This document shows positions 36,078-55,671 of a DNA stretch of 64,000 bases, piece by piece; position 1 is the stretch's first letter; the number at the start of each line of letters is the position of its first letter. This DNA comes from Chloroflexota bacterium. Its GTDB lineage: Bacteria > Chloroflexota > Dehalococcoidia > UBA2247 > RBG-13-53-26. The position numbers and the translations under genes are program-made. The DNA is taken from the NCBI GenBank assembly GCA_026389585.1, contig JAPLHP010000036.1, positions 41,366 through 105,365 of the forward strand, in the 5' to 3' direction. Under the pieces are notes generated by a model. It worked only from the letters and a program-made list of their open reading frames with translations. It searched no databases and was not told the DNA's origin.

Positions 36078-36952
36078 GGCAGGGACGCACGCAGAGCGGC
36101 AATGATTCGTTCTCCCTTGTTGGGGTCTTCACCAGCCGCACGCTTCTTGGCGACATATTCTTCGAGAATGCCCAGCGCTGCAACGTTTGAAACGTAGCGG
36201 AACAGGCCCGTTGCCCAAGCTGTCGAGCCTGGATTATGTGGATTCGTGTGATATTTCCAGAAATCGATCTCGTATCCTAGCATATCGTCCAGTGCACTGC
36301 TCTTGTCTCCAAAGATCTTGGTTTCTCTGCCAGGGTCTTCAACAAGCTTGGTGATTGCGAAAGCGCCCACCACAAAGCGGTCTCTGCGGTCTGGAGGCTC
36401 GGTGGTGAGAAGGGCTATCTTGCCTACTCTCGCGCCCCTGATCTTTCTGGGGCGGATCATCGTGCCATGTTCATCGGAGTCCCATCCCGCTGCGAAGTAG
36501 AAATCAATCAACGCTGTCGACTCATAGCATGGACTCCGTAGAGCTAGGTCCTGACCAACAAAATCTCTGCATCTGCTGAGTAGGCAGTACGGTCCTCCGA
36601 ATCTTAAATTGTGGACGTATGCTTTGTCACTGCATATGCCCTTGTATCCCTTATCATTCCAGTTGCACTTGAAGGCAATATTGCCATCCTCTTTCTTGCC
36701 AACTTCGCGGCGCTGCAATCCATCCTCGATTTCTCGCGCCAGAGTCTCGATCCTACAGCGCCGGTTCTCAACTATTGTCCGATGTATCTCATTACTGGGA
36801 TTGGCTGCTTCCTGGAGGCGTTGGAACGTCTCCTCCGCCGTTGAAAGGTGTTCTGCTGCCTGTTGGTAGACGAGACCATGGATCAGAGCCCCAATGTTGT
36901 TTAGTTGCTGATCCAGGGACTCGCGGATAGTGCGTAGATCGTCATTGCCCAT
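36074..36952 (-). CDS. hypothetical cysteine-rich protein, last gene of defense operon
   Basis: Start at MGNDDLRTIRESL overlaps the GmrSD stop. Cys cluster CNWNDKGYKGICSDKAYVHNLRFGGPYCLLSRC. No domain recognisable by eye. Confidence 0.45.
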   Translation of the reverse strand: MGNDDLRTIRESLDQQLNNIGALIHGLVYQQAAEHLSTAEETFQRLQEAANPSNEIHRTIVENRRCRIETLAREIEDGLQRREVGKKEDGNIAFKCNWNDKGYKGICSDKAYVHNLRFGGPYCLLSRCRDFVGQDLALRSPCYESTALIDFYFAAGWDSDEHGTMIRPRKIRGARVGKIALLTTEPPDRRDRFVVGAFAITKLVEDPGRETKIFGDKSSALDDMLGYEIDFWKYHTNPHNPGSTAWATGLFRYVSNVAALGILEEYVAKKRAAGEDPNKGERIIAALRASLP

Positions 36953-38858: not shown

Positions 38859-38910
38859 GAGTCATACACCAAGAAAATACTATGCAGAGAACAGCGTCGG
38901 CTGAGCCCGT

Positions 38911-39084
38911 CTACTTGCGCTTCGGAATCGTGTACGTTCCCTTTGCACCTTGATAGACGTTGAACTTCGACTTGCAGCTTTCGCACTCATAGCGCTTAAC
39001 ATCAGAGCTCCCGTACTTCCACGACCGAATGGGCTTGGTCGAGACAGGTCGACTACATATGGGGCAGTTTGTTGCAGTTACCAT
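38911..39084 (-). CDS. 57-aa zinc-ribbon protein inside the defense operon
   Basis: MVTATNCPICSRPVSTKPIRSWKYGSSDVKRYECESCKSKFNVYQGAKGTYTIPKRK. AAGGAGG RBS 7 nt upstream of the ATG. Below the ORF-table cutoff. Confidence 0.55.
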   Translation of the reverse strand: MVTATNCPICSRPVSTKPIRSWKYGSSDVKRYECESCKSKFNVYQGAKGTYTIPKRK

Positions 39085-39210
39085 ACAGACACCTCCTTGC
39101 CTGGTCCCTTATGGGTTGTCTACGTGACATATGGATGTATATTACTCTTCCTAAGAACAATTCTGCCAGTACCGCTCTGTAGGCCCGGATCGCGTTCTTG
39201 AATTCACTCG

Positions 39211-41976
39211 CTACCATGGCCGCATCAATGCTTCCCTCTTCGCAGCTCCGCTCAAGACCTGGGCACAGGACTCCCAGTCTGTGCGCTCGATTTTCTGATA
39301 ACGGATCTCGAACGGGTGCTTCTCAGGAACGGCATCAATGATGCGCTTGGCTTGCTCCTCCTCACCGATAGCAACGTCAATCCAGACATCTTCAAGTACG
39401 TCAGGAATCTGCCCAAACAGGCTAAATATACTCTGAAGCCTAATGGACAATAATTGGTGAACGCGATCCTCGACAGATCCCAAGTAGCGCATGTTGTAGA
39501 CGTATACAATATCGTTGAGCTGCCCGATACGCTGTATCCTACCTTTGCGTTGTTCGAGACGCGTGGGATTCCATGGAAGGTCCAGGTTGATGAGCGTGCC
39601 GAGTCTCTGAAGGTTCAGCCCCTCAGATGCGGCGTCAGTCCCGAGCAGGAGGCGGATCTGCCCATTACGCACGCCAGCCTTAATCTCCTCCCGGTCGACC
39701 GGCGTGAATGAGCCGTCCTTCCACATGCCGGATTTACCGCTGCCTGCGTAAATAGCGATTGGCTCGTCGGGGAAGTCAAGGACGAGTTCTTTGGCCAGCC
39801 ACTGCACTGAATCATAGTACTGGCTGAAGACGATGCACCCCTTATCGAGCCAGCTTCGCCCCCGGAGGCAATCAAGGACTACGGAGTACTTGGGGTCTCG
39901 CTCCTGATTGGCTTCAAGCGCCTTGACGAATCTTTCGAGCAATACCCGCTCCTCATCGGTCAGAGTCTTTAACGTGCTCAGGGATGCGGCAGGATTCTCA
40001 TCCTCGCTCTCCGCGTCCGAATCCAAGGTGAACGAGCCGAGGTCTCGCCACGACGCCAGCATGGTCTCGGCTGTGGCTTTGCCTGCCGCGATACTGCTGC
40101 CCACCCGGCGCAGGAGGAGCGTGCGAAGAAAACCTGAGCCCTTCATGCGGGCACCAAGCTGCCGACAGAACTCCTCAGCCAGTTGGTATGCATCTCTGAG
40201 GAAGAGGGGTAAGCGGATGGCATCCTCGTCGCGATCCCCTAGAAGTTCGACACGGATCGGTTTTAGGTACGGCTCGCCGGTTTCAGGGTCGATTGTCTCC
40301 TCAAGATACTTGCGGCTCCGCCGTACGATATGGCGGATGAACGGATTATGCTGGTCAACAAAACGAGGGAACATGGCGTGCACACGGGCCTTGTCGGGAG
40401 GATTAAGACGGTCCCAATCGCTGCCGCCGGCAGACACTTCCATGTCGGTCATTCCCAGCGACCGACGCAGGATCTCGAAATCTCGATGCTCGGAGGATGG
40501 GGGTAATGGTGTGCGGACCCATTGCCACATGTCCAGTTCATCCTCCAGCTGTCTCGCCGTGCCCAGTACCAGCGGCAGGGCTCTTTCGGCATGGTGCCAC
40601 TCACTCCATGCGCCACCAAGGACAGCCTCGCTACCACGGCTCAGGATGTCAAGGAGATCCCAAGCCTCCACAGGGCGGATCTGAACGGGTGTCGCAGTCG
40701 CCAGGAGCATGCTCTTGGTGTGCTTTGACAGTTCATAGAGGAATTGAAGCAAGTTGTTCGGATCAGGTTTCTCCCCGTCACGACCTTCGCCCAAGTTTCG
40801 ACGGCGGGCGTTGTGTGCCTCGTCAACGATGATGCATTCATAGTCAAGGTGTTTGAGGTGCTCAGAATCCTCGCACTGAAAGACGGCCCTTGAAGTAGGA
40901 ACAATGCCAACGCGCCGCGGACAATTGCGTATTGCCTGGGGACCAACAGAAGGGTACTCGACACCGCGCTCATCCACCCATTGCTTCCCTGTCCATACGG
41001 CGGAGGGCATGTCAAGCAGGTCGTTGAGCTCATCCCGCCACTGCCAGACAAGCGCTTTCGGTGCGAGCACCAGGATTGGTTTGGTGCTGCATAGGGCCAT
41101 CAGCTCAGCCGCCATGGCGAGCTGAATGGTCTTGCCAAGGCCGACCTGGTCGGCGAGAACAAATCGCGCTCCTCCGGGGCTATTGAGATGTGCATCGAAC
41201 GCCAGCTTCACGAAGAACTTCTGGTGCTCCCAGAGACCCGCCTGCTGACGATAGACCGATGCCTCGATAAAGACCGATGCAGGTGTTGGAGCCACTGGCA
41301 ACGTGCCTGAGGGCCTCGCCCAGTCCTCCACCGAACTTATGACAGAGCGTTTGCTGAGGCGAGCGACATCTTCGATGACAAATTCCGCAAGCGGCACCGC
41401 GGCATGGTGAGTCCATAGGGCATCAAACTCTTCTTGGACCCAGGCCACAGCCTCCGGCGATGAGTCTTCCCACAGAAGTTCGTAATTCAGTGTCCATGCT
41501 GACCGTGATTCATTGACGCTGCCCAAGAAGGCAGTGCGACTCCCATCAGCAAGCATGATTACCCCGGCCTTGCCGTGAACGAGCCCGAAGTACTCATCCG
41601 GGAGCACTCTCACTTGTAGCTTCCCGCTGCGCAGGAACTCGTGAAGACGCGAAAAGCGGTTACGAGTTGCCTCTCCCCCAGATTCGACCAGCGTCTCGGG
41701 ACGCGAGCTACACCACTCCTGTCGAACGGCTGCAGCGGCGGCTCGAGCTGTGGCAACGTCTTGAGGTCGCAGCCCCGAGTTGCACACGATGCGTACAAGT
41801 CCGGTCACGCTCTCAATGGCTTCGCCAGCCACCTCAAGGATAGATCCGGAGAAGTATCCGGCGATGCGGTCATAAGCTTGCGCACCATGCAGGCGGTCTG
41901 TGAAGAATGACCGGTCCAGTCGTTGCCGCCTGGAGGAAAAACGCCGAATTTGGCTGTGGGCAACAGGGTCGTTCAT
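39211..41976 (-). CDS. PLD-family nuclease domain fused to SNF2/DEAD-like helicase
   Basis: N-terminal HKD motif (HGKAGVIM...GSVNES). Helicase motifs: Walker A GLGKT, DEAH box IIVDEAHNARR, C-terminal helicase motif LLLGTDAASEGLNLQ, motif VI QRKGRIQRIGQ. Start taken at MNDPVAHSQ. Confidence 0.8.
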   Translation of the reverse strand: MNDPVAHSQIRRFSSRRQRLDRSFFTDRLHGAQAYDRIAGYFSGSILEVAGEAIESVTGLVRIVCNSGLRPQDVATARAAAAAVRQEWCSSRPETLVESGGEATRNRFSRLHEFLRSGKLQVRVLPDEYFGLVHGKAGVIMLADGSRTAFLGSVNESRSAWTLNYELLWEDSSPEAVAWVQEEFDALWTHHAAVPLAEFVIEDVARLSKRSVISSVEDWARPSGTLPVAPTPASVFIEASVYRQQAGLWEHQKFFVKLAFDAHLNSPGGARFVLADQVGLGKTIQLAMAAELMALCSTKPILVLAPKALVWQWRDELNDLLDMPSAVWTGKQWVDERGVEYPSVGPQAIRNCPRRVGIVPTSRAVFQCEDSEHLKHLDYECIIVDEAHNARRRNLGEGRDGEKPDPNNLLQFLYELSKHTKSMLLATATPVQIRPVEAWDLLDILSRGSEAVLGGAWSEWHHAERALPLVLGTARQLEDELDMWQWVRTPLPPSSEHRDFEILRRSLGMTDMEVSAGGSDWDRLNPPDKARVHAMFPRFVDQHNPFIRHIVRRSRKYLEETIDPETGEPYLKPIRVELLGDRDEDAIRLPLFLRDAYQLAEEFCRQLGARMKGSGFLRTLLLRRVGSSIAAGKATAETMLASWRDLGSFTLDSDAESEDENPAASLSTLKTLTDEERVLLERFVKALEANQERDPKYSVVLDCLRGRSWLDKGCIVFSQYYDSVQWLAKELVLDFPDEPIAIYAGSGKSGMWKDGSFTPVDREEIKAGVRNGQIRLLLGTDAASEGLNLQRLGTLINLDLPWNPTRLEQRKGRIQRIGQLNDIVYVYNMRYLGSVEDRVHQLLSIRLQSIFSLFGQIPDVLEDVWIDVAIGEEEQAKRIIDAVPEKHPFEIRYQKIERTDWESCAQVLSGAAKREALMRPW

Positions 41977-41983
41977 GGTCTCC

Positions 41984-44974
41984 TCATACGTTGTCCTGCC
42001 GGTTCCGTAACGCACCAGCTAGCAACGCCGCCGCCTCGGCATCCTTGTGCCAGTGAACCAACGAAGTGTGATGGCGCAGCGCTGCGAGAAACTCCAGTAT
42101 GTCGATCAGGCGGGCTCGGTTGCTGGCGTAGTCTTTGATCTCCGTGGTGAACCATGTGATGGCTTCGCGTGTGCTGTCCATTTCTGTGGTCATGAAGACT
42201 CCGAACAATGCGTGGCGCACTAATGTGTCGCCGAAGCCATCTCCACCAAGATCCTTACGGCCGAATTCGCTGGCGGTTTTGAGGCGAGTCTGGTTGGCCT
42301 TCGTGCTGGCCAGAAGCGGTTTGTACTCCCTGACGCCGAAGCCGCGGGCGAGTTCTTGATATACCCCATTTCGATACTCACCGTGGCTCTCCATCTCCAA
42401 ACCCTTGAGGTAAAGCCGCTCAACAGCGGCCAAAGATTTCCACAAATGCCTATCAATGCCACGTGGCACCAAGTGGTCGCAGGCGATGGCCACAGCCTTG
42501 CGGATGACATCTTCTACTGGCGATACTTCTCCGCGGGCGCGAGTGCGGGTAAGCTCGTAGTTGACATCTATCTCTTCGATATTCTTGGAGGTGAGCACGC
42601 GTAGGGCAGCAGCATAGGCGGCAAGCTGGTAGTCTGTGTCGGCAAAGCTGGGGTCTCTCTCGTCGTCCATGGCGAGCATCGAGTCGAGCTGGTGTCGGAC
42701 CTCTGTTTCGACCTCAGGGTACACTTCGTCAAGGAAAGATGCCCCCTGCGGGCTCTGCTTGCGGAGGATCAGCAGCACAGTGCCTTGCACATAGTTGCCT
42801 TCCTTAAGAGGTGAGGATGTCTCGGTGGCGATGCACCAAGCTGCGGTTACGCGCAGTCCTGCGGCCCACAGGATGAGAGCCAGATCAGCCCACACGCCAG
42901 CGTCCTGATGGGTGAACATAACAACCTGCAGGCCGTTGTCAGGCATGTGCTGAGCCATGTTGCGGTAGCAGTCGACCATCGCCTTGCGAAAGCTGTCGTC
43001 ACTGCCCTTCACCGCCAGAGCTCGTTTAGAATCTGCATACCATTCTGGAAAGAGTTTGACAAGGTGAGTCTCGTACCAAGCAAGGAAGTATTCGGAGAGT
43101 TCATCATATTGAATGGCATCACCGTACGGGGGATCGGTGATCCACAGATCAGATACGTAGCCGCACTGACGAGCGTCAAGTGCCAGCACTTTGCCGCTGC
43201 CCACCACTTGCGCCCGGTTGATTAGGGCCATCCAAGTTGTTTGGAGGGCTGGCAAAGGCCTGACCCCAAAGTTGGATAGAGTGTTCAAAGCTTGGTTGCT
43301 GAAAGTCTGTTCAGTCTTCTCATTTGCTGCATTGGAGTGCCAACGGCAAAGCCGTGAGTTCCAGTCACTGCACCGGCCTATTGCCAAGACAAGAGCTGCT
43401 TCTTCCGCCGGAGAAGCTCCGGCATCGGCCGCAGCAGCGGCAAGCAAGCCGTTGACGAGAAGTTGCCTCGGTGTGAAGAGGTGGTGCCAGTGTGTCCAGC
43501 CACGCGTCCGAATGGGCTCGTCTGTCTTCACGCCCGGCTCGATCCGGCGACTTGGGATGAAGCCCTTCTGCTGCCAGTCCGTAAAATGCTCCATCAGGAG
43601 ATCCAATACACGCTGCTCACGCGCAAGGTCCTTAGCTGTCGGTGAGCGATAGTACCGCGCGCTGTGCTCCTTCCCTCCCACGTCGGTCCAGGTGTCAACC
43701 CAGCGGATGCAGTATAGGCGCTCGCCGAAAACATCACCATCGCGTGGAACGATATCGCCATTCTCCCAGCCTCTGAGCAAGCTTCTACTCTCGCTGAAGG
43801 TTCCGCGTCCATCTCCCCGTATCGCGCGAATCGGGGTGGGGTGAGCTTTGCACTGCGGGCAAATCAGTTCTGATTCCTTGGCTGTACCTGCTCGGTGTGC
43901 GGCTTCCAGCGCCTCATCCAAGACGCCTTGGACTATCTCGAAATCATAGCAGCAACGCTTGTCATTTGGCACAAGGCGTGCAATCGTTCTGCTGCCCCTT
44001 CCAATAACCCAGGAGGATGCAAGCGGTATGCGCCAGTTGCACTCGGGACACGTGACCTCGACACAATACAAGTAGGCATCGGCCCGCCAGCGTCGGCCCG
44101 TTTTGGGATCAGGCTCGCTGTGTTCAATGCCCCATGCGGTCACTTGGCGATCAACTTGTTCGAAAACAGTTCGCTGGATTCTCTGGACTCCTTCTGCTAC
44201 CTTTGGCACACCCCCCACGATCTTCAACGCGGCCCACGTAAGCAGTGCCGCCACCGGGTTCAAGTCGCTGCCATAGGCCTCACAGCCAATGCGGGCCGCC
44301 TCAAAGGGAACCGACCCGCCACCACAAAAGCAGTCGCCCACCCGAGGGACATGGCCAAAGCGGTTCTGGCCAAGCTCGGCAACTAAGTCAGCAAGCGAGG
44401 CGGCATGGGTACCAAGATGGGCATTGATAATCCGCCACGATTCGGCAGATGGTCCATCAACTTGCTCCGGGCGGACGCAGTATTCCTGCTGTTCGTCGTA
44501 CGATAGGCCGAGGAAAACTCGATGCTGCAGCTCATCCTTCTCGTGGCTTGTAATGCCTTTCTTGAGTTTGGGTTCCGTATCCGTAGAGCCAAGGTCGAAG
44601 TAGCGGCTTTGATCTGTGGGCCCAAGACATCGAAACAACTTGGCCGCCGGTATGTTCTTTGACTTGCGGCCGAGCATTCCGTCTTCATCCATAGTCATCA
44701 GTCGTAGGAAGACTTCTCGGTCTCGGGCTGCGTCAGTAGTTGCGGGCAAGAGCAGACCCAGGATTGTGGCTCGGCAGAGCACAAGGGGTTTACGCCCCCA
44801 CCACTTCCCCAGGCCGGTCAAAGTCTGGCTCTGTTTTGCGGTCCGCTCAGCATAACTCTCCTTCGAGAGCTTCGAGACGGGAAACTGAGTCTCAATTAGG
44901 CATAGCTCGGAACGCTGGAGCGATGCCGTGTGTTGTGCCGTTTCTGTGACTGTGGTCGGCATGTCTCTATTCAT
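41984..44974 (-). CDS. DUF1156 (COG1743) Zn-ribbon-containing DNA amino-methyltransferase
   Basis: 996 aa. N-terminal ETQFPVSKLSKESYAERTAKQ...GKWWGRKP is DUF1156-like. SAM-MTase motif IV WITDPPYGD. Cys clusters CPEC...CPQC. Confidence 0.75.
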   Translation of the reverse strand: MNRDMPTTVTETAQHTASLQRSELCLIETQFPVSKLSKESYAERTAKQSQTLTGLGKWWGRKPLVLCRATILGLLLPATTDAARDREVFLRLMTMDEDGMLGRKSKNIPAAKLFRCLGPTDQSRYFDLGSTDTEPKLKKGITSHEKDELQHRVFLGLSYDEQQEYCVRPEQVDGPSAESWRIINAHLGTHAASLADLVAELGQNRFGHVPRVGDCFCGGGSVPFEAARIGCEAYGSDLNPVAALLTWAALKIVGGVPKVAEGVQRIQRTVFEQVDRQVTAWGIEHSEPDPKTGRRWRADAYLYCVEVTCPECNWRIPLASSWVIGRGSRTIARLVPNDKRCCYDFEIVQGVLDEALEAAHRAGTAKESELICPQCKAHPTPIRAIRGDGRGTFSESRSLLRGWENGDIVPRDGDVFGERLYCIRWVDTWTDVGGKEHSARYYRSPTAKDLAREQRVLDLLMEHFTDWQQKGFIPSRRIEPGVKTDEPIRTRGWTHWHHLFTPRQLLVNGLLAAAAADAGASPAEEAALVLAIGRCSDWNSRLCRWHSNAANEKTEQTFSNQALNTLSNFGVRPLPALQTTWMALINRAQVVGSGKVLALDARQCGYVSDLWITDPPYGDAIQYDELSEYFLAWYETHLVKLFPEWYADSKRALAVKGSDDSFRKAMVDCYRNMAQHMPDNGLQVVMFTHQDAGVWADLALILWAAGLRVTAAWCIATETSSPLKEGNYVQGTVLLILRKQSPQGASFLDEVYPEVETEVRHQLDSMLAMDDERDPSFADTDYQLAAYAAALRVLTSKNIEEIDVNYELTRTRARGEVSPVEDVIRKAVAIACDHLVPRGIDRHLWKSLAAVERLYLKGLEMESHGEYRNGVYQELARGFGVREYKPLLASTKANQTRLKTASEFGRKDLGGDGFGDTLVRHALFGVFMTTEMDSTREAITWFTTEIKDYASNRARLIDILEFLAALRHHTSLVHWHKDAEAAALLAGALRNRQDNV

Positions 44975-44988
44975 GGTTCATCCCGAGT

Positions 44989-45732
44989 CTATTGAGAGCG
45001 GCTCGAATCTGACCCAAAGCCCAGCTGATTCGCCGCTTTTGCTCGCCGCGTTTTCCGTGACTTCCTGGCACTCCCTGTTGAGCTATGGGCTGTGCCCTCT
45101 TGAGCTGTAAGCTGGTCGGATTCGCTCATTGACTGGCTCACTAAGCGGAAGAACTCTGGCACAATCGGCTGATCGGGAGGACGGTCAGAGACCGGGTTCT
45201 CAGTCAGGGCAAATCGCACTGCCTTGCGCCAACCTCGCCCTCGGCCATCGGCGTAGCTGCCGGTAGCCGCCGCCGTCATGGTGTATAGCCACCAGCGCTC
45301 CTCGGGTGTCAGTCCCCGCCAGTTGGCGACCGCCGTAGGTATGAGGGCAGGGTCAGCATCTTCAAGAGCCCAGGTGAGGAGGGTCAGTTCTTTACCCAGC
45401 ATGCGGCTAACCGTATTGTAACCAGCTTTCCAGCGCCCCGGACGTTTGCCCTCTCTCTTGAGGCGCAAGTTGAACTCCGCGCGCACCAAGTCGGCGACTG
45501 CGTTCCATTTCGGCCGATCAAGTTGGCTTTTCACCTGGCCATCAAGACGCTCACCGTAGTGAACCGAATCGGCGATGCGATCGGGATCCCACGACAGATG
45601 TTCACTGATTGTGATGGGTTGCGTCGTGCCAGCAGGAATGTGAACCAGGAAATGGGAAACTGACTGGTTGGGGTCAAAGCCGAAAGTGTCGACAAGCACG
45701 TCCGGACTAGGTTTCTGGTTACGTTCAGCCAC
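44989..45732 (-). CDS. DUF3780-like protein (inferred from position between DUF499 and DUF1156 genes)
   Basis: 247 aa. Position and size match the DUF499-DUF3780-DUF1156-helicase arrangement predicted in defense islands. Family call relies on synteny, not verified motifs. Confidence 0.45.
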   Translation of the reverse strand: MAERNQKPSPDVLVDTFGFDPNQSVSHFLVHIPAGTTQPITISEHLSWDPDRIADSVHYGERLDGQVKSQLDRPKWNAVADLVRAEFNLRLKREGKRPGRWKAGYNTVSRMLGKELTLLTWALEDADPALIPTAVANWRGLTPEERWWLYTMTAAATGSYADGRGRGWRKAVRFALTENPVSDRPPDQPIVPEFFRLVSQSMSESDQLTAQEGTAHSSTGSARKSRKTRRAKAANQLGFGSDSSRSQ

Positions 45733-48700
45733 TATTGCCTCACCTCTGAAGCCTGATAGTCGGTCTTGTTCTCATTGATCCAGTCGAGGAACCCCTGCCC
45801 GCGCTCAAAGTGGAGGGCCGATACCTCGATACCGAGTTGACCTTCGTTGGTGAGCTTGCGGACGGCATCGGCGGCCTCCCGCAGGGCATCCGCACCAAGT
45901 TGGATCTTCTCATGCAGAGTGAGCTCAGCCCAACGGTTGCCCGTCACGCTGACCTTGATTCCACTCATGGACATGGGATGAGCCTTCAGTCTCTCCAGGA
46001 AACCATACGACTCGAGCGTGGTGTTAAACTCATGACGCCTGGTCCACGTCAGGGGTCTATCGGGGTCAATTTGCTTGTCCGTGTCGGGTCTGTCCCAAAG
46101 TATCTCGGCAGTCAACACTTCCGAGACGACGTCGCCGTGCATCGCTACCGCCAGGACGAACCGCGTGCCACGATGGACCTCGAAAGGCTCCTCGTAAGTA
46201 CCACCGGAAACCTTGGGGTCTGAGCCATCCGTGGTGTACTTGATCTCGGTGCGCCCGTCCTTGTTGGGGGCAGCTCGGAGCTCAACAATCTTGTTCCCTC
46301 TCTTGCCCGCGTAGGTCTTGTATTTCAAAGTCAGGCGGTTGCGCCACTTGTGATCCGGGCCAGAAGCATGCGTTCGCGTAGAATCCACGGCCAGAAACGA
46401 GACCTCCATTTCGCTCGTTCGATAAAGACCCTGCTCGACCTTCTGGGAGGCTTCCGTCGCATCAGCGCCGACTTCGGCGTACACAGTGTCGCCGTGCACA
46501 GGCGTAACCTTCAACTCCACCTCTCCAGTATCTTCATGGCGTGAGCGCTCCTGTATCTGCACCGAAGTGGTCTTGGGTGGTGGTGGGTTCCGGTCAACGT
46601 AGCCCGCCGGATCCTCGCGCCAGACCTCACGGTATACAAGATCATCCTTGATAGCATCGAGCGCCTCGCGACGGTGCCACTGCCACTGAGGGTTCATGGC
46701 AGCACGTCGCTTGACTTCGCTCCACAACATAACGGGTGTCGTAAACAGACGCGCTTCAATCTTCTTGCGGAATGTATCGCTCGTAACGTCTTCGGTGTAC
46801 TTCTGCTTGTCCTTCAAGACCTGGATGACCTGGTCCTCGCCGTTGTACTTGTTCCCCTCGTACTTCATCAGGAAGTCAGCAGAAAGGAAGACATCCGTAT
46901 CATTTTGACGGAAGGGGTAGTACAGAGTCGAGAATGTCTCTTTGACCGCTGAGAGGAACTGGCCCAGAATGCGATCCCGGAGTTCATCTGCCTGCTTGAA
47001 CTGAGGGTCCGTCTGAGGAGTCTTGTCCGCCTCCATTTCGTCGAGAATATGTTGGATAGCCTTGAGCCGCTTGGCGCTGTCGATTAGTGTGTCGAAGGTA
47101 TTGCGCGAACCCGTCAAGACGGCGATACGATTCTTGAAGGGAGTCTGCCCGTAGAATTGGACGAGTTGGGGGTTCAGACCCTGGCCAACGTAGGGCTCGG
47201 AGATGACGAGAGAGATGCGATCCTGGAACACTTGAATCTCGTCGATGGACGGCAGCACCAGTACTTCCTGATAGCACCAGCCCATCGGCGGTTTGAAAAG
47301 GGTCTTGAGGCGCTCTCTGAGTTCTTTCAATGCCTGTTCTCGGACATATGCAGTGGACAGCGACTCCAGCTTCGCGACGAGGTTCTGGACGTTCTTGAAG
47401 AACAGCCTGCCGTCACGATTGGAGTGGAGGTACCAGGCTGCAGTGGCAAGCTTCTCGAGAATATCGCTCTTGAGACGGGCCAGATTCCTACCGGGCGCGC
47501 AGAGGTAGCCCACCACTTCCGGGATGGTTAGGCCGACAACAGCATTCGGGACATTGGCCAGCGAAGACATGAAGATGAGCCGACATGCGTCCTGCGTGTC
47601 ATTCGTGCCCAGGTTCTGATCCATGACTTCGGCGACTGCTTTCCCCTGAGATGCAATATCGTGGGCCACGGCGTTGTCCAGTGTGGGGTTGATCTGGCGG
47701 ATTTCCGACAGGGTCTCGGGGTCGTTCAAGTCTATGTTGTGCACGCCAATGAGATACACCTTCTCCGCTTCCCCCGATTGCCACAGTCGCGAGGTGATGA
47801 TGCGCATCAGGCGGATCAGTGCACGGGTCTGCTGGAATCCGGGATTTTCACGAAAGCGTGCATACAGGTCTTTGATCGAAGGGTGGAACGGGTAACTGTC
47901 TTGGATGAACTGCGCAAACTTCTCTGGCGACTGGGCCGTAATGTCCATCTGTCGCGCCTCGCGGATGGCCTTGGCATATGCTTGGGCGACCTCTGTCACC
48001 TCCTCGTTTGGTGGCAGGTCCTTGAACAGGCGCTTCCGCAGGATGTGATAGAACTCATCTGTGTTGATTTGAACCGGCGTCAGGTTCATCGAGTGCCTTT
48101 GGGCCTCGCTCTGAAGCTGCTTCAGCAGGTCGGCGATCTGGGCACTAGCTTCGGCATAAGTGCCGACAAGGTCAGTCAGCACGATGCACACGTTGGCTAG
48201 CTCTTTCTCTGCGACTGCTTCGAAAAGGTTGGTCAGTGCTGTGGCCGTGACGTGCGAAAGATCTGAGTTGCCGACGGCGATTGACTTGGCGTTATCGAGG
48301 TAAGGTGGCAGTTCGTCGAGGAGTATCAGGGTAGGCTTGCCTTTGAGCAGGTTTATCCAGGCTGAGCGGCCCGGAGCCTTCAGCGGCGAATAGTAGTCCT
48401 TGAAGTCGGCATGTCTACCTATCTGACGCGCTATCTCTCCCCAGATACCGTGTGGAACGTCGGTTTCGCGGCCTGAGAAGGCAATGACTCGCACGGGTGG
48501 CAGCGCCTTCGCGCTTGGCAGTCCGGGCAGAACAGCTGCACGGAGTTCCGGATGCTTCGCCAACAGGCCAAGAGTGATGAGGTTATGTGTCTTGCCCCCA
48601 CCCATCGCCTGGGTGAGTTTGAATACTGCCTGCTCCGAACGACCCTCAAGTCGCCGGAGGGCCTCCATAAGCAGAGTTCGCATCCCGTCCGTGACATAGT

Positions 48701-48833
48701 TCTCTTCGAGGAAGGCCCTAGTGTCGATCTTGTCTTCGGCCAGATGCATCAGGTTGAGAACGGTGTCGCGACGAGCCGCGTCGAAGACGCTCTCGCGTGG
48801 TGTGCATAGGGTCTTGATCGATTTCATTTGCAC
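45732..48833 (-). CDS. DUF499 / BrxC-PglY-like P-loop ATPase
   Basis: 1033 aa, Walker A AMGGGKTHNL near the N-terminus, Walker B ILLDELPP. Size and architecture match DUF499. Confidence 0.7.
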   Translation of the reverse strand: MQMKSIKTLCTPRESVFDAARRDTVLNLMHLAEDKIDTRAFLEENYVTDGMRTLLMEALRRLEGRSEQAVFKLTQAMGGGKTHNLITLGLLAKHPELRAAVLPGLPSAKALPPVRVIAFSGRETDVPHGIWGEIARQIGRHADFKDYYSPLKAPGRSAWINLLKGKPTLILLDELPPYLDNAKSIAVGNSDLSHVTATALTNLFEAVAEKELANVCIVLTDLVGTYAEASAQIADLLKQLQSEAQRHSMNLTPVQINTDEFYHILRKRLFKDLPPNEEVTEVAQAYAKAIREARQMDITAQSPEKFAQFIQDSYPFHPSIKDLYARFRENPGFQQTRALIRLMRIITSRLWQSGEAEKVYLIGVHNIDLNDPETLSEIRQINPTLDNAVAHDIASQGKAVAEVMDQNLGTNDTQDACRLIFMSSLANVPNAVVGLTIPEVVGYLCAPGRNLARLKSDILEKLATAAWYLHSNRDGRLFFKNVQNLVAKLESLSTAYVREQALKELRERLKTLFKPPMGWCYQEVLVLPSIDEIQVFQDRISLVISEPYVGQGLNPQLVQFYGQTPFKNRIAVLTGSRNTFDTLIDSAKRLKAIQHILDEMEADKTPQTDPQFKQADELRDRILGQFLSAVKETFSTLYYPFRQNDTDVFLSADFLMKYEGNKYNGEDQVIQVLKDKQKYTEDVTSDTFRKKIEARLFTTPVMLWSEVKRRAAMNPQWQWHRREALDAIKDDLVYREVWREDPAGYVDRNPPPPKTTSVQIQERSRHEDTGEVELKVTPVHGDTVYAEVGADATEASQKVEQGLYRTSEMEVSFLAVDSTRTHASGPDHKWRNRLTLKYKTYAGKRGNKIVELRAAPNKDGRTEIKYTTDGSDPKVSGGTYEEPFEVHRGTRFVLAVAMHGDVVSEVLTAEILWDRPDTDKQIDPDRPLTWTRRHEFNTTLESYGFLERLKAHPMSMSGIKVSVTGNRWAELTLHEKIQLGADALREAADAVRKLTNEGQLGIEVSALHFERGQGFLDWINENKTDYQASEVRQ

Positions 48834-49247
48834 ATCCCTCCTGCCCCGGTCCCATCAGATTGCTCTGGCTGGGCGACCGCGGGCCGATTGTCAATTGTAT
48901 GCCTGATCACGAAATCCTGGCGAAAGCGGCAACATAGCGAAAACAAGGCCTTCTGACAATGCGAATTCTACGACTACCCTTGCTATTGTGCAAGGGATAC
49001 CCTTTTTGGAGCGTGCTCTCCAGGACGCAGATGAAGGGAGTTTGCAGGTAACGAAACAGCGAATTGTTGGATCACAATCTGGACTATTGTTCAACGTTCC
49101 AGCGCTCCGAAACGGCAGCTCTTCTCTTGAACTTGGCAATGATGTAGTATGCATGTAGAATTGGCCAGCACTAAGACGATTGCATTGAAGAGAAGATCGT
49201 AAACAGCGCCGTAATCTTCAGGGAAGATCGGAGGCAGCTAGTAGAAT

Positions 49248-50600
49248 ATGGAAGTGAGAGATCCTCTGTACGGTTTGGTGGAGTATGGGACAGATGAAGA
49301 GAAGATAATAAACAGCATCGTACTTCAGAGGTTGCGAAACATAAAGCAGCTTGCATTGGCTAGCGCTGTCTATCCTGGTGCACATCACTCGAGGTTTGAA
49401 CATAGTATTGGCACCATGCATTTGGCTGGGATGGTAGCGAAGAGGCTGGGGCTAGAAGCGGAAAGGCCTGTTCTGCGACTCGCTGGACTGCTGCATGATG
49501 TTGGGCATGGGCCGTTCTCTCATGTCTCTGAACAAGTTATGGAGGGATATGCAAGTGACATCATGGCCAAATATCATGCAGATGGCGTACACGAATTGAT
49601 CAGTATGATGCTTATTGAGAGGCTTGGCAGCTTGGCAGGAGTGACACTCGAAAGCGGTGTTACATCCGGGATATGCGAGCTTCTCAAGAAACAACCTAGA
49701 AGGTCTTTGCAGCAAGGCATCATCTCGGGTCCGTTGGATGTCGACAAACTTGACTATCTTCGGAGGGATAGCTACTTCGCCGGGGTTCAGTACGGAGCCT
49801 TTGATCTCGATAAGGTGATTCATAGCCTCACCAGGATAAGGATCAGTAGTGAAGAAGAACAACTAGGTTTTCATGAGGAGGGTGTCCATGCAGTTGAACA
49901 GCTCCTACTTGCAAAGTACCACATGAATGTGCAGGTCTATCAGCATAGGATTAGGCGCATAACTGATGCAATGCTGGTTAGTGGCATTAGGTTTGCCTTA
50001 GAGGAAGGAGTTGGTGAAGTCCAAAGGCTTTTCACTGTGGAGGATTCTGATGCTTACCTGCAGTACTATATCTCGAACAATGATAATACTCTCATGGACA
50101 CAGTCCTACAGAAAGGCAAGGAAGGGTCGAGAGAGCTGTTTCAGCGCATAAAGGAGCGCAAACTTCTGAAACAAGTGTTTTCACTCGAGATAAGCAGAGA
50201 CAACTTTCCAGACGCAGTTCAGATGGACAACATATTGCGCTTGTCTGATGCACAATTGCACCAGATAGCACAACGGGCAGTGGAACTCTATTCTGCAACA
50301 GATAGCAGGCTGGATCCAAACCTGGTCATAGTGGACAAACAGACCATCTCTAATCCAACCTTCAAATCACCTCAGACCAGCATTGATCAAGGCACGATAA
50401 TGGTAAAGACGAAGTCTGGACAGAGAAAGGCTTTCCCAGACATATCCACTATCTTTCGGAACCCTAGCATAGATCCCAAAGTCGAGGTTCTCTACGTCTA
50501 CTTGCCTCTGGATTGGCTCGGAAGCAAGGGGGACAGGGATGCGTTCATCAACCAAAGATATGATACAATGGCTGAACAAGTGATGGAGGTGGTCAAATGA
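49248..50600 (+). CDS. HD-domain phosphohydrolase of the dGTPase/SAMHD1-like family
   Basis: HSRFEHSIGT...LLHDVGHGPFSH...DKLDYLRRDSYFAGV motifs of dNTP triphosphohydrolase-type HD proteins. Confidence 0.75.
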   Translation: MEVRDPLYGLVEYGTDEEKIINSIVLQRLRNIKQLALASAVYPGAHHSRFEHSIGTMHLAGMVAKRLGLEAERPVLRLAGLLHDVGHGPFSHVSEQVMEGYASDIMAKYHADGVHELISMMLIERLGSLAGVTLESGVTSGICELLKKQPRRSLQQGIISGPLDVDKLDYLRRDSYFAGVQYGAFDLDKVIHSLTRIRISSEEEQLGFHEEGVHAVEQLLLAKYHMNVQVYQHRIRRITDAMLVSGIRFALEEGVGEVQRLFTVEDSDAYLQYYISNNDNTLMDTVLQKGKEGSRELFQRIKERKLLKQVFSLEISRDNFPDAVQMDNILRLSDAQLHQIAQRAVELYSATDSRLDPNLVIVDKQTISNPTFKSPQTSIDQGTIMVKTKSGQRKAFPDISTIFRNPSIDPKVEVLYVYLPLDWLGSKGDRDAFINQRYDTMAEQVMEVVK

Positions 50601-51196
50601 GATTGGACGATCTCGTCATACTGACGCTGCATTTCAGCGACAACAAGATGATTGCTGGTCGGACCCTCCTACAAAAGACCCTCTACTTCCTTAACGCAAA
50701 GCTTAATCTGGGCGTGGAATTTGCGTCTCACTACTATGGTCCCTATTCCTCCGACGTTGCTGAGTCAATTGCCCGTCTGAATTCTGCTGGTATTCTGGAG
50801 GAAAGCATTGAGTACCTCCAACCGCTGAGTTTTGGAGTGACTTTCGAGCCCAGAAGGTTTACATACAGGCTTACAGACACTGGAAAGAGCATAGCAGAGA
50901 TTGCCGAAAGACGGAATGAGACCGAAGCCGAAGCGATCAAGGGAATCCTTGATCGCATGAAGAATCTAGGCGTTGTGGATGACTACAAGAGCCTGTCTAT
51001 TGCAGCAAAGATGCACCGTATATTGAAGATCGAGAAGAAACCTATGACAGCCTCGCAGGTTCTGGAAGAGGCCAAAGCCTTAGATTGGAGAATAGAAAAG
51101 GGAGATGCTGATGGAGCAGTGGTTTTTCTCAAGGGGATGGACTTAGTCATGGAATTCGAGCATCCTGCTGCAGCGAATACAGCAACCACGGCTTGA
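50597..51196 (+). CDS. Panacea (DUF4065/SocA-like) domain protein, putative antitoxin
   Basis: LLQKTLYFLNAKLNLGVEFASHYYGPYSSDV matches the DUF4065 core (L.KLLYf...g..l....f.aw.yGPv...vy). ATGA overlap with the HD gene. Confidence 0.55.
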   Translation: MRLDDLVILTLHFSDNKMIAGRTLLQKTLYFLNAKLNLGVEFASHYYGPYSSDVAESIARLNSAGILEESIEYLQPLSFGVTFEPRRFTYRLTDTGKSIAEIAERRNETEAEAIKGILDRMKNLGVVDDYKSLSIAAKMHRILKIEKKPMTASQVLEEAKALDWRIEKGDADGAVVFLKGMDLVMEFEHPAAANTATTA

Positions 51197-51576
51197 GTTG
51201 CAAGTAAGCCTCCAGTTGAAATTGTGTTGATCTTGAACTAGTGATGACCTGTGTTAGGGGTCGGTTGCGCCTACACGCAGGACATTGAAGTCCATCCTCG
51301 GGCTTCTATGAGTTGACAAGACCACCCCACCAAGTGCATCCATTAGGAAGTCCTTGTATATTGGCATGCCATATTCCACATCGTCACGCGCTGTCTCTCA
51401 AGAGATGCTCCTTTCGGAGCAGCGACAGGGTCATTGGGTAATGCCAGTCTTTGGATGAAACAGGCTTCCGCAGGCTGGGTGTTGACCAGAAGGAGACAGA
51501 TTTGATCCTAGAAGAGATTACTGGGTAAGCCGAAATACGTGGATTCAGAAGCATAACGTTCTACATCCCCCACTGA

Positions 51577-51690
51577 GATTGCTTCGCTGCGCTCGCAATG
51601 ACACCGGCGGCTAACCCGCAATGACACCAGCGGCCAACCGGAATGACACGGCACACAAACCCCTGAGCCATAAGCGAGAAGAAATACGAT
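51577..51690. repeat. dispersed repeat family copy C (head plus three ~22-bp GCAATGACACCGGCGGCTAACC units)
   Basis: GATTGCTTCGCTGCGCTCGCAATGACAC head, then tandem units as in 55764-55975. Confidence 0.65.
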
Positions 51691-51727
51691 ATGTTCGGAG
51701 ATGTTTCCTAGCCATGGGTCAGCCCCA

Positions 51728-52228
51728 TTAGTCATGGGCCAGGCGGCGTATCGTTGCGTTTATGGAGTTGCTCTCACCTTGGGTGATCAAGCCGTCACGG
51801 ACCGCCAGCTTCAACAGGTCTCCTGTACCAAAGACAGCAATAGATAAACTCACAGCCTTACATGCTTCGCGTGCAAGGCCATCATCTGTCGCTATATCGT
51901 AGCCCCTGTTGCAGGCGATGGCTATTGACGCGGATTCGCCCAGCCCCAGCCTCCTTCCAAGGAGCAGGTTAGCATATATCGAGATTTCTTCCCCGGAGGA
52001 TTCATCAAGAGTAACCACGCAGATGGTACCGTCAACCTGCATCTGTGTTAGAAGAGCTATGAGATATTGCCCTCTACCGGGCCAGCGTGAGGCTTCCTGA
52101 AGGACCTGGCCGGTGATGCAGAAAGTGCCCTTTGGCCAGATTCCCAGCACTCGAGCTAGAGCTCCGGCAGAATACAGTCTTGAGACAACGTCGTTATCGA
52201 GGACAACAGGTCTGTTGAAAGGCGACAT
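51728..52228 (-). CDS. PIN-like domain protein (DUF4411-like), putative toxin partner of ImmA/IrrE
   Basis: 166 aa. N-terminal VVLDNDVV plus downstream acidic residues fit a PIN fold. ATG directly follows the ImmA stop. Confidence 0.5.
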   Translation of the reverse strand: MSPFNRPVVLDNDVVSRLYSAGALARVLGIWPKGTFCITGQVLQEASRWPGRGQYLIALLTQMQVDGTICVVTLDESSGEEISIYANLLLGRRLGLGESASIAIACNRGYDIATDDGLAREACKAVSLSIAVFGTGDLLKLAVRDGLITQGESNSINATIRRLAHD

Positions 52229-53377
52229 TCAGGCATCGCCTTCCTTACTTTCTCCACTAAGCTCGTCTCTGAGTTCGTAGTAGTTCCTCCTCAGGAGTTC
52301 GGCCAGCTTCTCAAATGAGACAAGTTTCGCCTTGTAAGCCTCGTATGCCAGATATTTGTAATGACGAGGAAGCATGTCAGGGGGATCCTCTCTGTCACAA
52401 TATCCCAGCAGGATGGCGATAGGTGATGTGGTGACTCGTTGAGTCATAATGCCTTGCCATCTGGAAAGCGAGAGCTTCCTGAGAGATACCAACCTCCAGC
52501 CGGTTGCTTCAAAGCTGGTGCCGAAATAAGTCGCTAGATGAAAGACGACCTCAGCCGTTGGGGCAGTTGTCTGTTTGGATACAAACTGGCTCAACATCTC
52601 ATTCATGGCGCGTCTGGGCATCAGGAAAGCAGCGGCAAATGCATTGGCGAAACGTTCGTGAGGACGCCGTGTCACAAATCCAGTGTCGGTGTCAATGTGA
52701 GCATGGGCTAACTGATTCCGATGGGCAATGCAGTGCCCATACTCGTGTGCCACAGTAAATGTGCGCCTCCGCTGAGGATGAAGTGAGTTGATTAGCAAGC
52801 AGGCGCCAAGGTCCTTGTCACACGCAAAAGCGCCGGAGAACCCTTGTGATTCCTCCGGCAGGTGAAATATCTTCACCCCCCTCTTCTTTTCCAGTAAGTC
52901 GCAAATATCCTTTATGGGCTGACTATCAAGGCCCATTGAGCTTCGCTCAGCCACTGCCAGGTCTTCGGCCTGTTCCAGTGTTGTTGGAGAAGCACTTGAG
53001 TAGTCAGGCGGCCCCGGCATCTCTGGCGCTCCCACGAGCTGCATCAGGTCTCGGTAGTCTTTGCATAAGTCTTGAAATCCGATGATTGTCTCCCGGGGAA
53101 CAGCTGCTGCTGAAGCAGCTCGGAGTAGAACGGAGAAGCAGGCACTGGACTCGTCCTGGTCAAAGAAGAAGGTCAGGGGACGATGATATAACTTGGCGAA
53201 CTTGTATAACTCTACGGCCGAGACACGTCGCTTCTGACTCTCAATGTCTGAGACGGTGGATGTTGCGAGGCCCATACTCTCGCCGACCTGGCTGAGAGTG
53301 AGTCCCAAGGCTGTTCTGGCTTGCCTCAGCATACGGCCGACTGCGACAGGCAAATCCGTCGTTGCACTAACAACCAT
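52229..53377 (-). CDS. XRE-HTH + ImmA/IrrE-family (COG2856) zinc metallopeptidase
   Basis: N-terminal HTH (LGLTLSQVGESMGLATSTVSDIESQKR). HExxH motif HEYGHCIAH. Confidence 0.75.
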   Translation of the reverse strand: MVVSATTDLPVAVGRMLRQARTALGLTLSQVGESMGLATSTVSDIESQKRRVSAVELYKFAKLYHRPLTFFFDQDESSACFSVLLRAASAAAVPRETIIGFQDLCKDYRDLMQLVGAPEMPGPPDYSSASPTTLEQAEDLAVAERSSMGLDSQPIKDICDLLEKKRGVKIFHLPEESQGFSGAFACDKDLGACLLINSLHPQRRRTFTVAHEYGHCIAHRNQLAHAHIDTDTGFVTRRPHERFANAFAAAFLMPRRAMNEMLSQFVSKQTTAPTAEVVFHLATYFGTSFEATGWRLVSLRKLSLSRWQGIMTQRVTTSPIAILLGYCDREDPPDMLPRHYKYLAYEAYKAKLVSFEKLAELLRRNYYELRDELSGESKEGDA

Positions 53378-53629: not shown

Positions 53630-54523
53630 TCAATTTCCTTCTGAATCGGTTTCGGCTCTTGCGGGAAAGAGTTCCTTCAGGGCTGACATAAATTCATCAA
53701 GCTGCAAACCGGGGCGATAATAAGGGCTTTCCCTCAATCGGATCATGCCCGGATGGTCGAGGGCGGAGAAGTGTTTCAAGACCAGACGTCCTGCCTCCAT
53801 AATGTATGGATCGTCTCCGTACTGATGGCGCAATTCAAGGGCATGTTTCCACTCCGTCTCCATGGTCGTCGCCAGGATGGTGTACATATCCAGGGCATGG
53901 TAGCGACCGAATTCCTTGTTGGCATCGTTGAGCCGGTCCTTGAAGGCGAATAGTTTCATCATCAGGAACGTGTAGGGTTGCGGAAGAAAGACCTCAGCTT
54001 GCCAGGGCTCGCCTGAACTGAGTTTCCCATTCAGCGTTTCCGGCAACAGCCCTTCTTCCAACGTCGGAACTTCGTCGACGGGATGGGCGTGAATGCCAAC
54101 GGAAGGATCGGGCCGGGCACGGCGGGTGTCCGTTTTCACCCGTGTGCCCTCAAAACGGCTTTGCGGACCGGTAAGGATGTCTATCTTGACGCTGCCTGCC
54201 TGAGCGCCTCCAGGACCGAGCTTCATAAACTGGTATTTCTCTGCGCCGCGAACAACCTTATAGCCCAGCCTGGCAATGGCCTCTGCCAGTGGTTTCAATT
54301 TTGCTGACTGGATGAGCAGTTCCGGACGTAGAAACAAATCAAGGTCGTTGGTGGAACGTGCTTCAGGCCATTCACGGAAGAGTGTTGGCGCACCGAGGCG
54401 GCGCACGTAATCGGCCTTGAGGTAGATGCCAAAACCGCCGCCAATGATGAGTCTGATATCCGCGCCTTGCACTTCGTAGAGCAGATCGAGCAACGCCGTT
54501 TGAAGGTCGGGGATCGTGATCAT
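53630..54523 (-). CDS. AbiEii/DUF1814-like nucleotidyltransferase (type IV TA toxin family)
   Basis: 297 aa, NTase motif IIGGGFGIYL...NDLDLFL. Overlaps the upstream gene by 4 nt. Confidence 0.55.
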   Translation of the reverse strand: MITIPDLQTALLDLLYEVQGADIRLIIGGGFGIYLKADYVRRLGAPTLFREWPEARSTNDLDLFLRPELLIQSAKLKPLAEAIARLGYKVVRGAEKYQFMKLGPGGAQAGSVKIDILTGPQSRFEGTRVKTDTRRARPDPSVGIHAHPVDEVPTLEEGLLPETLNGKLSSGEPWQAEVFLPQPYTFLMMKLFAFKDRLNDANKEFGRYHALDMYTILATTMETEWKHALELRHQYGDDPYIMEAGRLVLKHFSALDHPGMIRLRESPYYRPGLQLDEFMSALKELFPARAETDSEGN

Positions 54524-55671
54524 TGCTGCTCTCGGTGAAGATTCACCAAGAGGAACGACTTCACCTGTTCGGCAGTCTCCCGGTCACGCTTGTCGCCGGC
54601 CATCAACTCCAAATACACCTGCACAGGGGAGGCCCACCAGAAGTTTCCCTCCTGCCGGGCATCGAAGTAGACCGTTTCATCCTCTGTCTCGACGACTTCA
54701 AGGTTCGGGAAGCGATCCGACTGACTCCCAGACAGCCGCTCCAGCAGCATCTCCAAACGCGGGCAGTAGACAGAGAACAGATCCCCTCGCTGCATCACGG
54801 CATATTGCGCCACCGATGATGTCCCTGCAGCCACAAGGGGCAGGCCCAATTCCAGCGACTGCTTTTGCAGCGATTCCCGGATCGTTCCGTTCCCTTCCGA
54901 GACTTTGAGGCGGACTCGCTCCCTGATTTTCGGAGGGACATAGTTGTCACTCAGTTTTTCCAGAAGTTTGTCGGGTTGCAGCAGGCAAATGGTACTCTTG
55001 CGCTCGACGACCAAATCCTCCCCCAACGTCTTCAACACTTTCGACACCGTCGACAGGCTCATGGGCCTCGTAGCCCAACGGTTCACCAGCATGTTTCGCC
55101 GGTTGATCTCGGCGCAAATCTCTTGAACGGTGTCGTAGCTGGAACGGGCGAGGAAGACCCTGCCAACCATGGAACTGTTCTTCCGATAGATGTTCTTGAT
55201 CGGTGCTGAGGAGGAAAAACAGTTCTTCTCGCCGCTGCGGAACAGGGCAAACATGCCCGGCACAACCACCACGCCGTTACCGCACAGGTCTATGCCGCTG
55301 ATGCCTTCCCGCTCCAGCTCCTGCAGTTGCCGTTCACTGAGGAAAGGCATGATAAGCATAGGCCGGTAGCTCTTCGGGAGCGACAATAGTTTCAGCAGGT
55401 TGAGCCCATCCTGAAACGCCTTGGGCGTCGATAGGGATTTGCATTCGACGGCGAACTTTGCCGTGCTCTCACGCCATGATACCTCAATCAATGCATCGAG
55501 GCGACGGTTTCCGCCTGCTTCAGGCTGACTCTCCAGGAAGCGAAAAGACAGCGGAGGCAGTGAGACTTTACCTCTCCGAAGCTGTTCAATCATCTCCCTC
55601 TCTGTTGTCATTTTCCTGATGCTTTTCATTTTCCTAAACAAGAAAATAGCAGTTTTTAGGAAAACATGCAA
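54520..55671 (-). CDS. putative AbiEi-like antitoxin/regulator (hypothetical)
   Basis: 383 aa, upstream of and overlapping the NTase gene as in AbiEi/AbiEii pairs. No motif verified by eye. Confidence 0.35.
   Translation of the reverse strand: MHVFLKTAIFLFRKMKSIRKMTTEREMIEQLRRGKVSLPPLSFRFLESQPEAGGNRRLDALIEVSWRESTAKFAVECKSLSTPKAFQDGLNLLKLLSLPKSYRPMLIMPFLSERQLQELEREGISGIDLCGNGVVVVPGMFALFRSGEKNCFSSSAPIKNIYRKNSSMVGRVFLARSSYDTVQEICAEINRRNMLVNRWATRPMSLSTVSKVLKTLGEDLVVERKSTICLLQPDKLLEKLSDNYVPPKIRERVRLKVSEGNGTIRESLQKQSLELGLPLVAAGTSSVAQYAVMQRGDLFSVYCPRLEMLLERLSGSQSDRFPNLEVVETEDETVYFDARQEGNFWWASPVQVYLELMAGDKRDRETAEQVKSFLLVNLHREQQ

Follow-up and report, generated by a model that had tools for sequence, protein, structure and literature searches.

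A conserved gene pair encoding a SAMHD1-like HD phosphohydrolase and a relative of the DarG C-terminal domain in Bacteria and Archaea

Positions 49248 to 51196 of a 64-kb stretch of contig JAPLHP010000036.1 from a Chloroflexota bacterium (hereafter the window, meaning all 64,000 nucleotides analysed) carry two overlapping genes, one for an HD-domain phosphohydrolase of 450 amino acids (aa) and one for a small protein of 199 aa. The two genes are best explained as one obligate, co-inherited module, and related pairs are found in both Bacteria and Archaea. Judged by its sequence, the HD protein is an enzyme of the SAMHD1/EF1143 clade of deoxynucleoside triphosphate (dNTP) triphosphohydrolases with its catalytic residues intact. 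By sequence profiles and a structural model, the small protein is a free-standing relative of DarG's C-terminal domain, which sequesters the toxin DarT. The existence of a conserved two-gene module is well supported, and its function is unproven. We tentatively suggest that the small protein binds and restrains the dNTPase, and that its release during infection would deplete dNTPs.

Both open reading frames (ORFs) are on the + strand, the HD gene at 49248-50600 and the small gene at 50597-51196, and they share an ATGA stop/start overlap at 50597-50600. This is exactly how they were described in an earlier prediction made from the letters of the window (hereafter the original prediction). The ATG of the small gene (50597-50599) overlaps the TGA stop codon of the HD gene (50598-50600), and a Shine-Dalgarno-like GGAGG (50585-50589) is located inside the HD gene, 7 nt 5' of this ATG. 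Read from the sequence, the junction (50585..50600, + strand) is a case of classic translational coupling. Both ORFs are real genes. A database search with the small protein gave 154 homologues at E<=1e-3 with a best non-self match of 2.5e-68, and an entry identical to it is present in a Chloroflexi metagenome-assembled genome. A candidate sigma-70-like promoter for the pair, TTGGCA-17-TAGAAT (49133..49161, + strand), is proposed from its consensus match (10 of 12 positions). It is located in the 414-nt divergent intergenic region common to the pair and a DUF499 operon. It was the one promoter-like site given by a scan for promoters and terminators, and such sites are no commoner in this region than in shuffled sequence.

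Starting from the small gene, 79 loci were recovered from reference genomes. In 64 of these the small gene has an HD homologue next to it on the same strand, with the HD gene first in 58 and the order reversed in 6. In the 58 HD-first loci the gap between the genes is mostly -17 to +47 nt, and an identical -4 overlap is found in seven related loci. Five of the 15 unpaired loci are weak matches (L075-L079 in our numbering), and the one of these that was examined, L075, is a true DarTG locus. The loci come from Poribacteria, Chloroflexota, Clostridia, Nitrospinota, Acidobacteriota, Gammaproteobacteria, Verrucomicrobiota, Methanosarcinales, Thermoplasmata, Nitrososphaeria and Thorarchaeota. Tandem duplicated pairs are present at L019 and L020 and two consecutive small genes at L038, and a single 2.7-Mb Nitrosopumilaceae genome (OZ241884.1) encodes two separate pairs, L059 and L068.

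Starting from the HD gene, metagenomes were scanned with the HD alignment, and relatives found by tblastn at E<=3e-53 were taken as the closest. All 12 evaluable closest relatives carry the small gene 0-72 nt downstream. Among 49 more distant SAMHD1-like HD genes, 44 are without the small gene and five have a weaker small-protein match next to them; in most of the distant HD relatives the alignment ends between approximately residue 310 and residue 400. Since the close relatives are paired and the distant ones mostly are not, the partnership marks one specific HD subclade. The two proteins also diverge together: their pairwise identities, compared over 46 pairs, correlate with r = 0.95, a value reached by none of 2,000 Mantel permutations. 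This correlation stems in part from shared phylogeny, yet it argues against partner swapping. The original prediction hinged on the two genes being conserved neighbours, and by both counts, 64 of 79 and 12 of 12, they are.

Approximately ten small genes stand alone as orphans, and no remnant of an HD gene is detected beside them at E<=1 (L006, L023, L024, L030, L045, L049, L051, L065, L069 and L088). We did not find an orphan HD gene within the close clade, that is, among the 12 evaluable relatives of the metagenome scan. Orphan small genes combined with no orphan close HD genes give an asymmetry typical of toxin-antitoxin (TA) pairs. A conserved tight two-gene operon, in which the putative antitoxin sometimes occurs alone and the putative toxin rarely does, is also what generically describes type II TA systems, and the present pair has these properties. 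The annotated neighbours of the orphan small genes are an AbiEii-like AAA ATPase, a type IIG methylase, a GNAT protein, a JAB protein, a ThsB-like TIR protein and an AIR-synthase-like protein. Partner swapping with the TIR, AbiEii-like ATPase, JAB, GNAT and type IIG neighbours was considered. We read these loci instead as cases of HD loss, because gaps of 150-380 nt separate the genes and the HD gene is present at other places in the same Poribacteria islands.

The HD protein, the presumed effector, matches the Pfam families HD (1.3e-11) and HD_assoc_2 (2.5e-17). Its closest relatives in PDB are Aquifex Aq_1910 (2hek, 3.7e-42) and 2q14, structural-genomics entries titled merely 'hypothetical protein' and 'phosphohydrolase'. 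Further matches are the dNTPase EF1143 (2o6i, 4e-30) and SAMHD1 (approximately 1e-25). The motifs HsRFeHS, LLHDvGHGPFSH, HE and DVDKLDYLRRD of the HD protein align to EF1143 and SAMHD1, and the H...HD...D metal site, the catalytic H-E dyad and the DxDKxDYxxRD motif of SAMHD1/EF1143-type enzymes are all present. Each of the residues R49, H52, H83, D84, H87, H92, H115, E116, D164, D166, D169, Y170, R173 and D174 is found in at least 95% of 56 paired orthologues, and all of them are invariant in an alignment of 16 sequences (A3). With these Pfam matches, the EF1143 and SAMHD1 matches and the aligned catalytic motifs, the full dNTP-triphosphohydrolase HD signature ascribed to this protein by the original prediction is borne out, and dNTPs are its predicted substrate.

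Within the HD superfamily, the sequence places the protein in the SAMHD1/EF1143/Aq_1910 branch, with an HD_assoc_2 region, and outside the Dgt branch. The dGTPase model of PADLOC gives a weak partial match (2.2e-10) to residues 12-103 only, and the NCBIfam anti-phage dGTPase model NF041026 matches with an E value of 0.005 and 16 bits against a cutoff of 400. Neither model gave a full-length match above the family cutoff, and we do not assign the protein to the known anti-phage dGTPases.

The small protein is the presumed binding and regulatory partner of the HD enzyme. Its residues 15-162 match the C-terminal part of DarG in two independent HMM libraries, namely PADLOC DarG (9.9e-7, model positions 177-304 of 329) and NCBIfam antitoxin_DarG (1.8e-5, model positions 182-318 of 338). 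Both scores are far below the full-length cutoffs because the C-terminal domain alone matches. An AlphaFold2 model of the small protein, built with 32 homologues (pLDDT 87.5, pTM 0.83), is composed of two winged-helix-like units linked by helices. The top matches of this model in a Foldseek search against PDB are the DarG chains of the Mycobacterium tuberculosis DarT-DarG complex 7yk3 (E 7.4e-5, TM 0.61/0.64), and the family profile retrieves 7yk3_B from sequence alone (E 2.6e-4). The locus L075, found by scanning genomes with the family motif, encodes a true darT-darG pair (DarT 3.3e-50, Macro domain 2e-21). The C-terminal half of its DarG aligns to the small-protein family with an hhalign probability of 97.2% and an E value of 3.8e-11. 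Sequence homology and a shared predicted fold over the whole domain thus both point to the DarG C-terminal domain superfamily. The pair is not a DarTG system, as the partner is an HD enzyme and not DarT, and no Macro domain is found in the 199-aa protein.

In the JGI annotation many homologues of the small protein are labelled 'uncharacterized protein YwgA'. An exhaustive profile search gave 2,677 clusters (50% identity) at E<=1e-3. The best 150 of these clusters are 123-265 aa long, nearly all of them approximately 180-200 aa, and so are too short for HD fusions. We did not find fusions of the HD and small proteins (Rosetta stone proteins) among the best 120 and best 150 matches listed. The literature searched gave no demonstrated function for YwgA or YwfO. 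It should be noted that PDC-M19A, a candidate defence model of 294 positions in PADLOC, gives a weak match (E 0.01) to residues 21-78 of the small protein (50657-50830 in the window). The domain may, on this sequence match, also be part of the PDC-M19A candidate system.

We suggest the following mechanism. The small protein would be produced by translational coupling whenever the HD enzyme is produced, and would clamp the enzyme directly and keep it inactive, by analogy with the sequestration of DarT by the DarG domain. A cue linked to infection would then relieve or override the inhibition; the small protein could be lost or titrated, or it could be bound by a phage protein or nucleic acid. 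The freed HD enzyme would deplete dNTPs and thereby block phage DNA synthesis, as an abortive or bacteriostatic defence. We favour a clamp because of the homology to DarG, the effector-first gene order as in L075, the orphan asymmetry and the precedent of Clover. The small protein is, by its sequence, homologous to the sole characterised member of the superfamily, an antitoxin domain that binds and neutralises a toxin, and DarG's C-terminal domain does so by itself (PMC7003065). The conserved pairing, the co-divergence, the intact catalytic residues, the defence context and the multiple copies in some genomes also speak for this model. Defence effectors with dNTPase activity are toxic if unrestrained, and Clover CloA is held in check by CloB (PMC12265719). 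From these comparisons we infer physical binding, its inhibitory direction, the dNTP substrate and the role in defence. A gated dNTPase is plausible as a defence or TA-like switch, arguably on a better footing than in the original prediction.

Compared with DarTG, the small protein has the same predicted fold, detectable homology and the motif QK..YF...F.P..YGPYS in common with the DarG C-terminal domain. Effector precedes binder in the gene order of both systems; the two genes nearly abut in L075, the one darT-darG locus examined, and overlap in the window. Unlike in DarTG, there is no macrodomain here and hence no arm for enzymatic reversal. An HD phosphohydrolase takes the place of the ADP-ribosyltransferase DarT as partner, no DarT gene is located nearby, and binding of the partner would be by analogy. 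The known dNTPase defence enzymes (the bacterial dGTPase of Tal et al., human SAMHD1 and the octameric dGTPase Vdg) have the catalytic motifs of the HD superfamily in common with the HD protein, which in the window likewise stands in a defence island, whereas it lies outside the Dgt branch and has an obligate small partner. Clover consists of the CloA dNTPase and the CloB nucleotidyltransferase (PMC12265719). The two systems may have a two-gene logic in common, in which an operon partner restrains a dNTPase effector against self-toxicity. They differ in the partner, here a winged-helix protein without enzymatic function that presumably acts by protein-protein contact, whereas Clover makes the inhibitory nucleotide p3diT. 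The resemblance to B. subtilis YwfO/YwgA is one of names and enzyme type: JGI gives the YwgA name to many members of the family, and YwfO is an HD phosphohydrolase (PMC4993169).

Several observations weigh against a clamp-controlled defence or TA enzyme. Bacterial SAMHD1-like HD enzymes such as EF1143 are ordinary dNTPases and are not known as toxic. Outside Poribacteria the flanks of the pair are mixed. They comprise 134 proteins from 44 loci, with 189 Pfam families, of which many are housekeeping and a minority defence, so that the genomic context speaks for defence here and in several phyla, not everywhere. Searches of 72,556 plasmids and 50,697 phages gave no match to the small protein, and its single match in 2.9 million IMG/VR contigs is the orphan L088; such near-absence sets it apart from many TA modules. 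Within the small-protein family the polar motif GRTLLQK...YYGPYS is invariant, and it is partly common to DarG despite the different partner, which hints that the proteins share a ligand or a function other than the sequestering of a specific partner. The 7yk3 paper (Deep et al. 2023) reportedly describes inhibition via ssDNA mimicry by the DarG C-terminal domain. In our family the pI varies from 4.5 to 9.6 and the net charge is very variable. A uniform DNA-mimic mechanism is thus unsupported, and there is no uniform DNA-binding character either. Net charge was considered as a means of telling DNA binding from DNA mimicry, and with this spread it was uninformative.

A serious rival, to which we give a rather low probability all the same, is that the HD protein is an ordinary triphosphohydrolase for dNTP-pool maintenance or nucleotide sanitising, similar to YwfO and EF1143. 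A YwgA-like subunit would regulate, stabilise or target the enzyme, and the pair would have no TA or immune role. In B. subtilis, ywgA presumably follows ywfO, which encodes an HD phosphohydrolase; a sequence search with a Bacillota member of the family as query reached no named Bacillus YwgA. The YwgA label of many homologues, the absence of the pair from plasmid and phage collections, the many housekeeping neighbours outside Poribacteria and the deep distribution of the pair in Bacteria and Archaea, with co-divergence, all agree with such a role. So does the co-evolution of B. subtilis ywfO with polC, in the manner of a core gene (PMC3814617), which is also a further point against the clamp. 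A housekeeping enzyme agrees less well with the lack of conserved synteny outside the pair, with its placement in defence islands here and in at least four other phyla, with tandem or multiple copies per genome and with the occurrence of orphan small genes. In addition, most SAMHD1-like HD enzymes do without the partner, and the small protein has only one characterised relative, an antitoxin domain (PMC7003065).

It is unlikely, in our estimate, that the double winged-helix protein instead senses nucleic acid or a phage protein and then activates the HD effector or brings it to DNA; the pair would then possibly be, in some lineages, an accessory of methylase/helicase restriction-like systems. 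The sole experimental data on the homologous domain concern inhibition by sequestration (PMC7003065), the pI of the family is not consistently basic, and the association with methylases is found in a minority of loci, mostly from one phylum. The winged-helix fold and the upstream divergent intergenic region with its promoter-like site would also agree with a transcriptional autoregulator of the operon that does not bind the enzyme. We regard such a role as very unlikely. The clade-specific tight co-occurrence, with a gene order that is reversible yet always adjacent, exceeds the behaviour of a generic regulator, the homology is specifically to a protein-binding antitoxin domain, and the pI of the family is often acidic.

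The original prediction had read the N-terminus of the small protein as a match to the antitoxin domain Panacea (DUF4065), so that a PanA antitoxin would neutralise an HD toxin in a new PanAT pair. Panacea does pair with many toxin folds (PMC8832971), and a small globular antitoxin-like domain beside an enzyme, a variable gene order and a short similar motif are common to PanAT (PMC8832971, PMC10440598) and the pair described here. Neither the small protein of the window nor any of 32 family members in the alignment matches PF13274 (DUF4065/SocA_Panacea) at E<=1 in Pfam; the gathering cutoff of Pfam is the one used by Kurata et al. The weak Pfam matches of the family are instead to winged-helix families, e.g. 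RTP and HARE-HTH. As a positive control, phage proteins were searched with a consensus-like probe, and all eight that were retrieved match PF13274 (best 8.1e-25). When the small-protein family was aligned to these eight Pfam-verified Panacea proteins, hhalign gave a probability of 4.3% over 35 columns. This stretch, the best local alignment, covers 'LQK..Y...F..YGP', the motif on which the original prediction had relied. The resemblance to Panacea over this short motif (LQK.lYf...F..YGP) is real, and it is no proof of membership. In a Foldseek search against the predicted viral structures of BFVD, none of the top 50 matches is named Panacea, DUF4065 or GepA; many are unnamed, and the named ones are generic winged-helix proteins only. 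The family also does not pair with many unrelated toxin domains, as the promiscuous Panacea does. It is almost monogamous with one HD clade (64 of 79 loci), and the remaining loci are orphans with large gaps to varied neighbours. With no PF13274 match, an hhalign probability of 4.3% and a far better match to the DarG C-terminal domain, we reject membership in Panacea/DUF4065 at the sensitivity of these searches. The Pfam check of the two proteins thus upheld the HD half of the original prediction and refuted its Panacea half, and a PanAT pair seems to us scarcely credible.

Within the literature searched, we found neither the combination of an HD enzyme with a DarG-C-terminal-like partner nor the homology described. 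An HD or dNTPase partner is absent from the main texts of the Panacea and NetFlax papers, as are DarG-C-terminal-like antitoxins. Fusions to SAM, NLR, TIR, death and SIR2 domains are listed in a 2026 survey of dGTPase architectures, which does not include the present partner. Both defence by nucleotide depletion and antitoxin clamps are already known.

We speculate, with considerable doubt, that the DarG C-terminal domain is one member of a widespread, free-standing 'YwgA-like' family of effector clamps unclassified in Pfam (the 2,677 clusters), whose main partner is a dedicated clade of SAMHD1-like dNTPases. The HD and YwgA-like pair would then be an undescribed, protein-gated immune or TA system acting by nucleotide depletion in Bacteria and Archaea, operonic in some lineages with type IIG restriction-modification. 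DarG would have arisen by fusion of the clamp to a macrodomain. If the clamp is true, control by a protein inhibitor would be added to nucleotide-depletion immunity, beside the inhibitory nucleotide of Clover and the allostery of SAMHD1. Approximately 2,700 sequence clusters outside Pfam coverage, the 'YwgA' of JGI, would be given a function, and the origin of the second, non-enzymatic neutralisation domain of DarG would be explained. As the pair is found in both Bacteria and Archaea, the clamp would then be an old way of regulating an enzyme with potential self-toxicity. If the enzyme instead has a housekeeping role, a dedicated regulatory subunit would have been identified for one clade of prokaryotic dNTPases.

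As the original prediction had proposed, the pair of the window is located in a defence island, with defence genes on both sides. Upstream, on the - strand, the GmrSD type IV restriction enzyme is encoded at 36942-38858. It is followed by a four-gene set (PADLOC 1e-239 to 1e-44) of a PLD-helicase, a DUF1156 methylase, a DUF3780 protein and a DUF499 ATPase, which together with GmrSD spans 36942-48833. This four-gene set is divergent from the HD gene across the 414-nt region. Immediately downstream of the pair, a Rosmer-like pair is encoded on the - strand at 51728-53377: a 382-aa protein with an XRE-HTH and an M78 (ImmA/IrrE) peptidase, similar to RmrA (PADLOC RmrA 6e-29), followed by a 166-aa gene (weak PDC-S70 match, 9e-8). 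Island ORFs of 297, 383 and 323 aa (53630-55671 and 36074-37045, - strand) gave no Pfam or PADLOC match at E<=1e-3.

Placement in defence islands recurs in at least four phyla besides that of the window, and outside Poribacteria we found no conserved synteny that extends past the pair. Directly upstream of the pair, a type IIG Eco57I-like restriction-methylase of 1,076-1,249 aa is encoded in Poribacteria, Nitrospinota and Gammaproteobacteria (L025, 34-5230; L029, 478-6564; L027, L032, L034-L036 and L039). In L025 the type IIG gene overlaps the start of the HD gene. Fragmentary or more distant copies are found in L037 (Limisphaerales) and L019 (Terriglobia). An HKD-Snf2 helicase often accompanies the type IIG gene at paired loci, and the type IIG gene, with or without this helicase, may form a three- or four-gene system with the HD and small genes. 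Also found alongside are TIR, Schlafen/AlbA_2, nucleoside deoxyribosyltransferase-like, DUF5131/PDC-M41B and PDC-M50A genes. The PLD-helicase and large methylase next to the pair in the window echo the arrangement of type IIG and HKD-Snf2 genes.

The GC content is 0.49 at 50001-52000 of the window, compared to 0.56-0.59 in the methylase/helicase block at 40-48 kb, a contrast that suggests that the neighbouring modules were acquired separately. Adjacent genes for tRNA-Arg(TCG) and tRNA-His(GTG) are located at 27049-27202 (- strand), approximately 10 kb upstream of GmrSD, the first defence gene annotated, and this tRNA pair could mark an integration hotspot.

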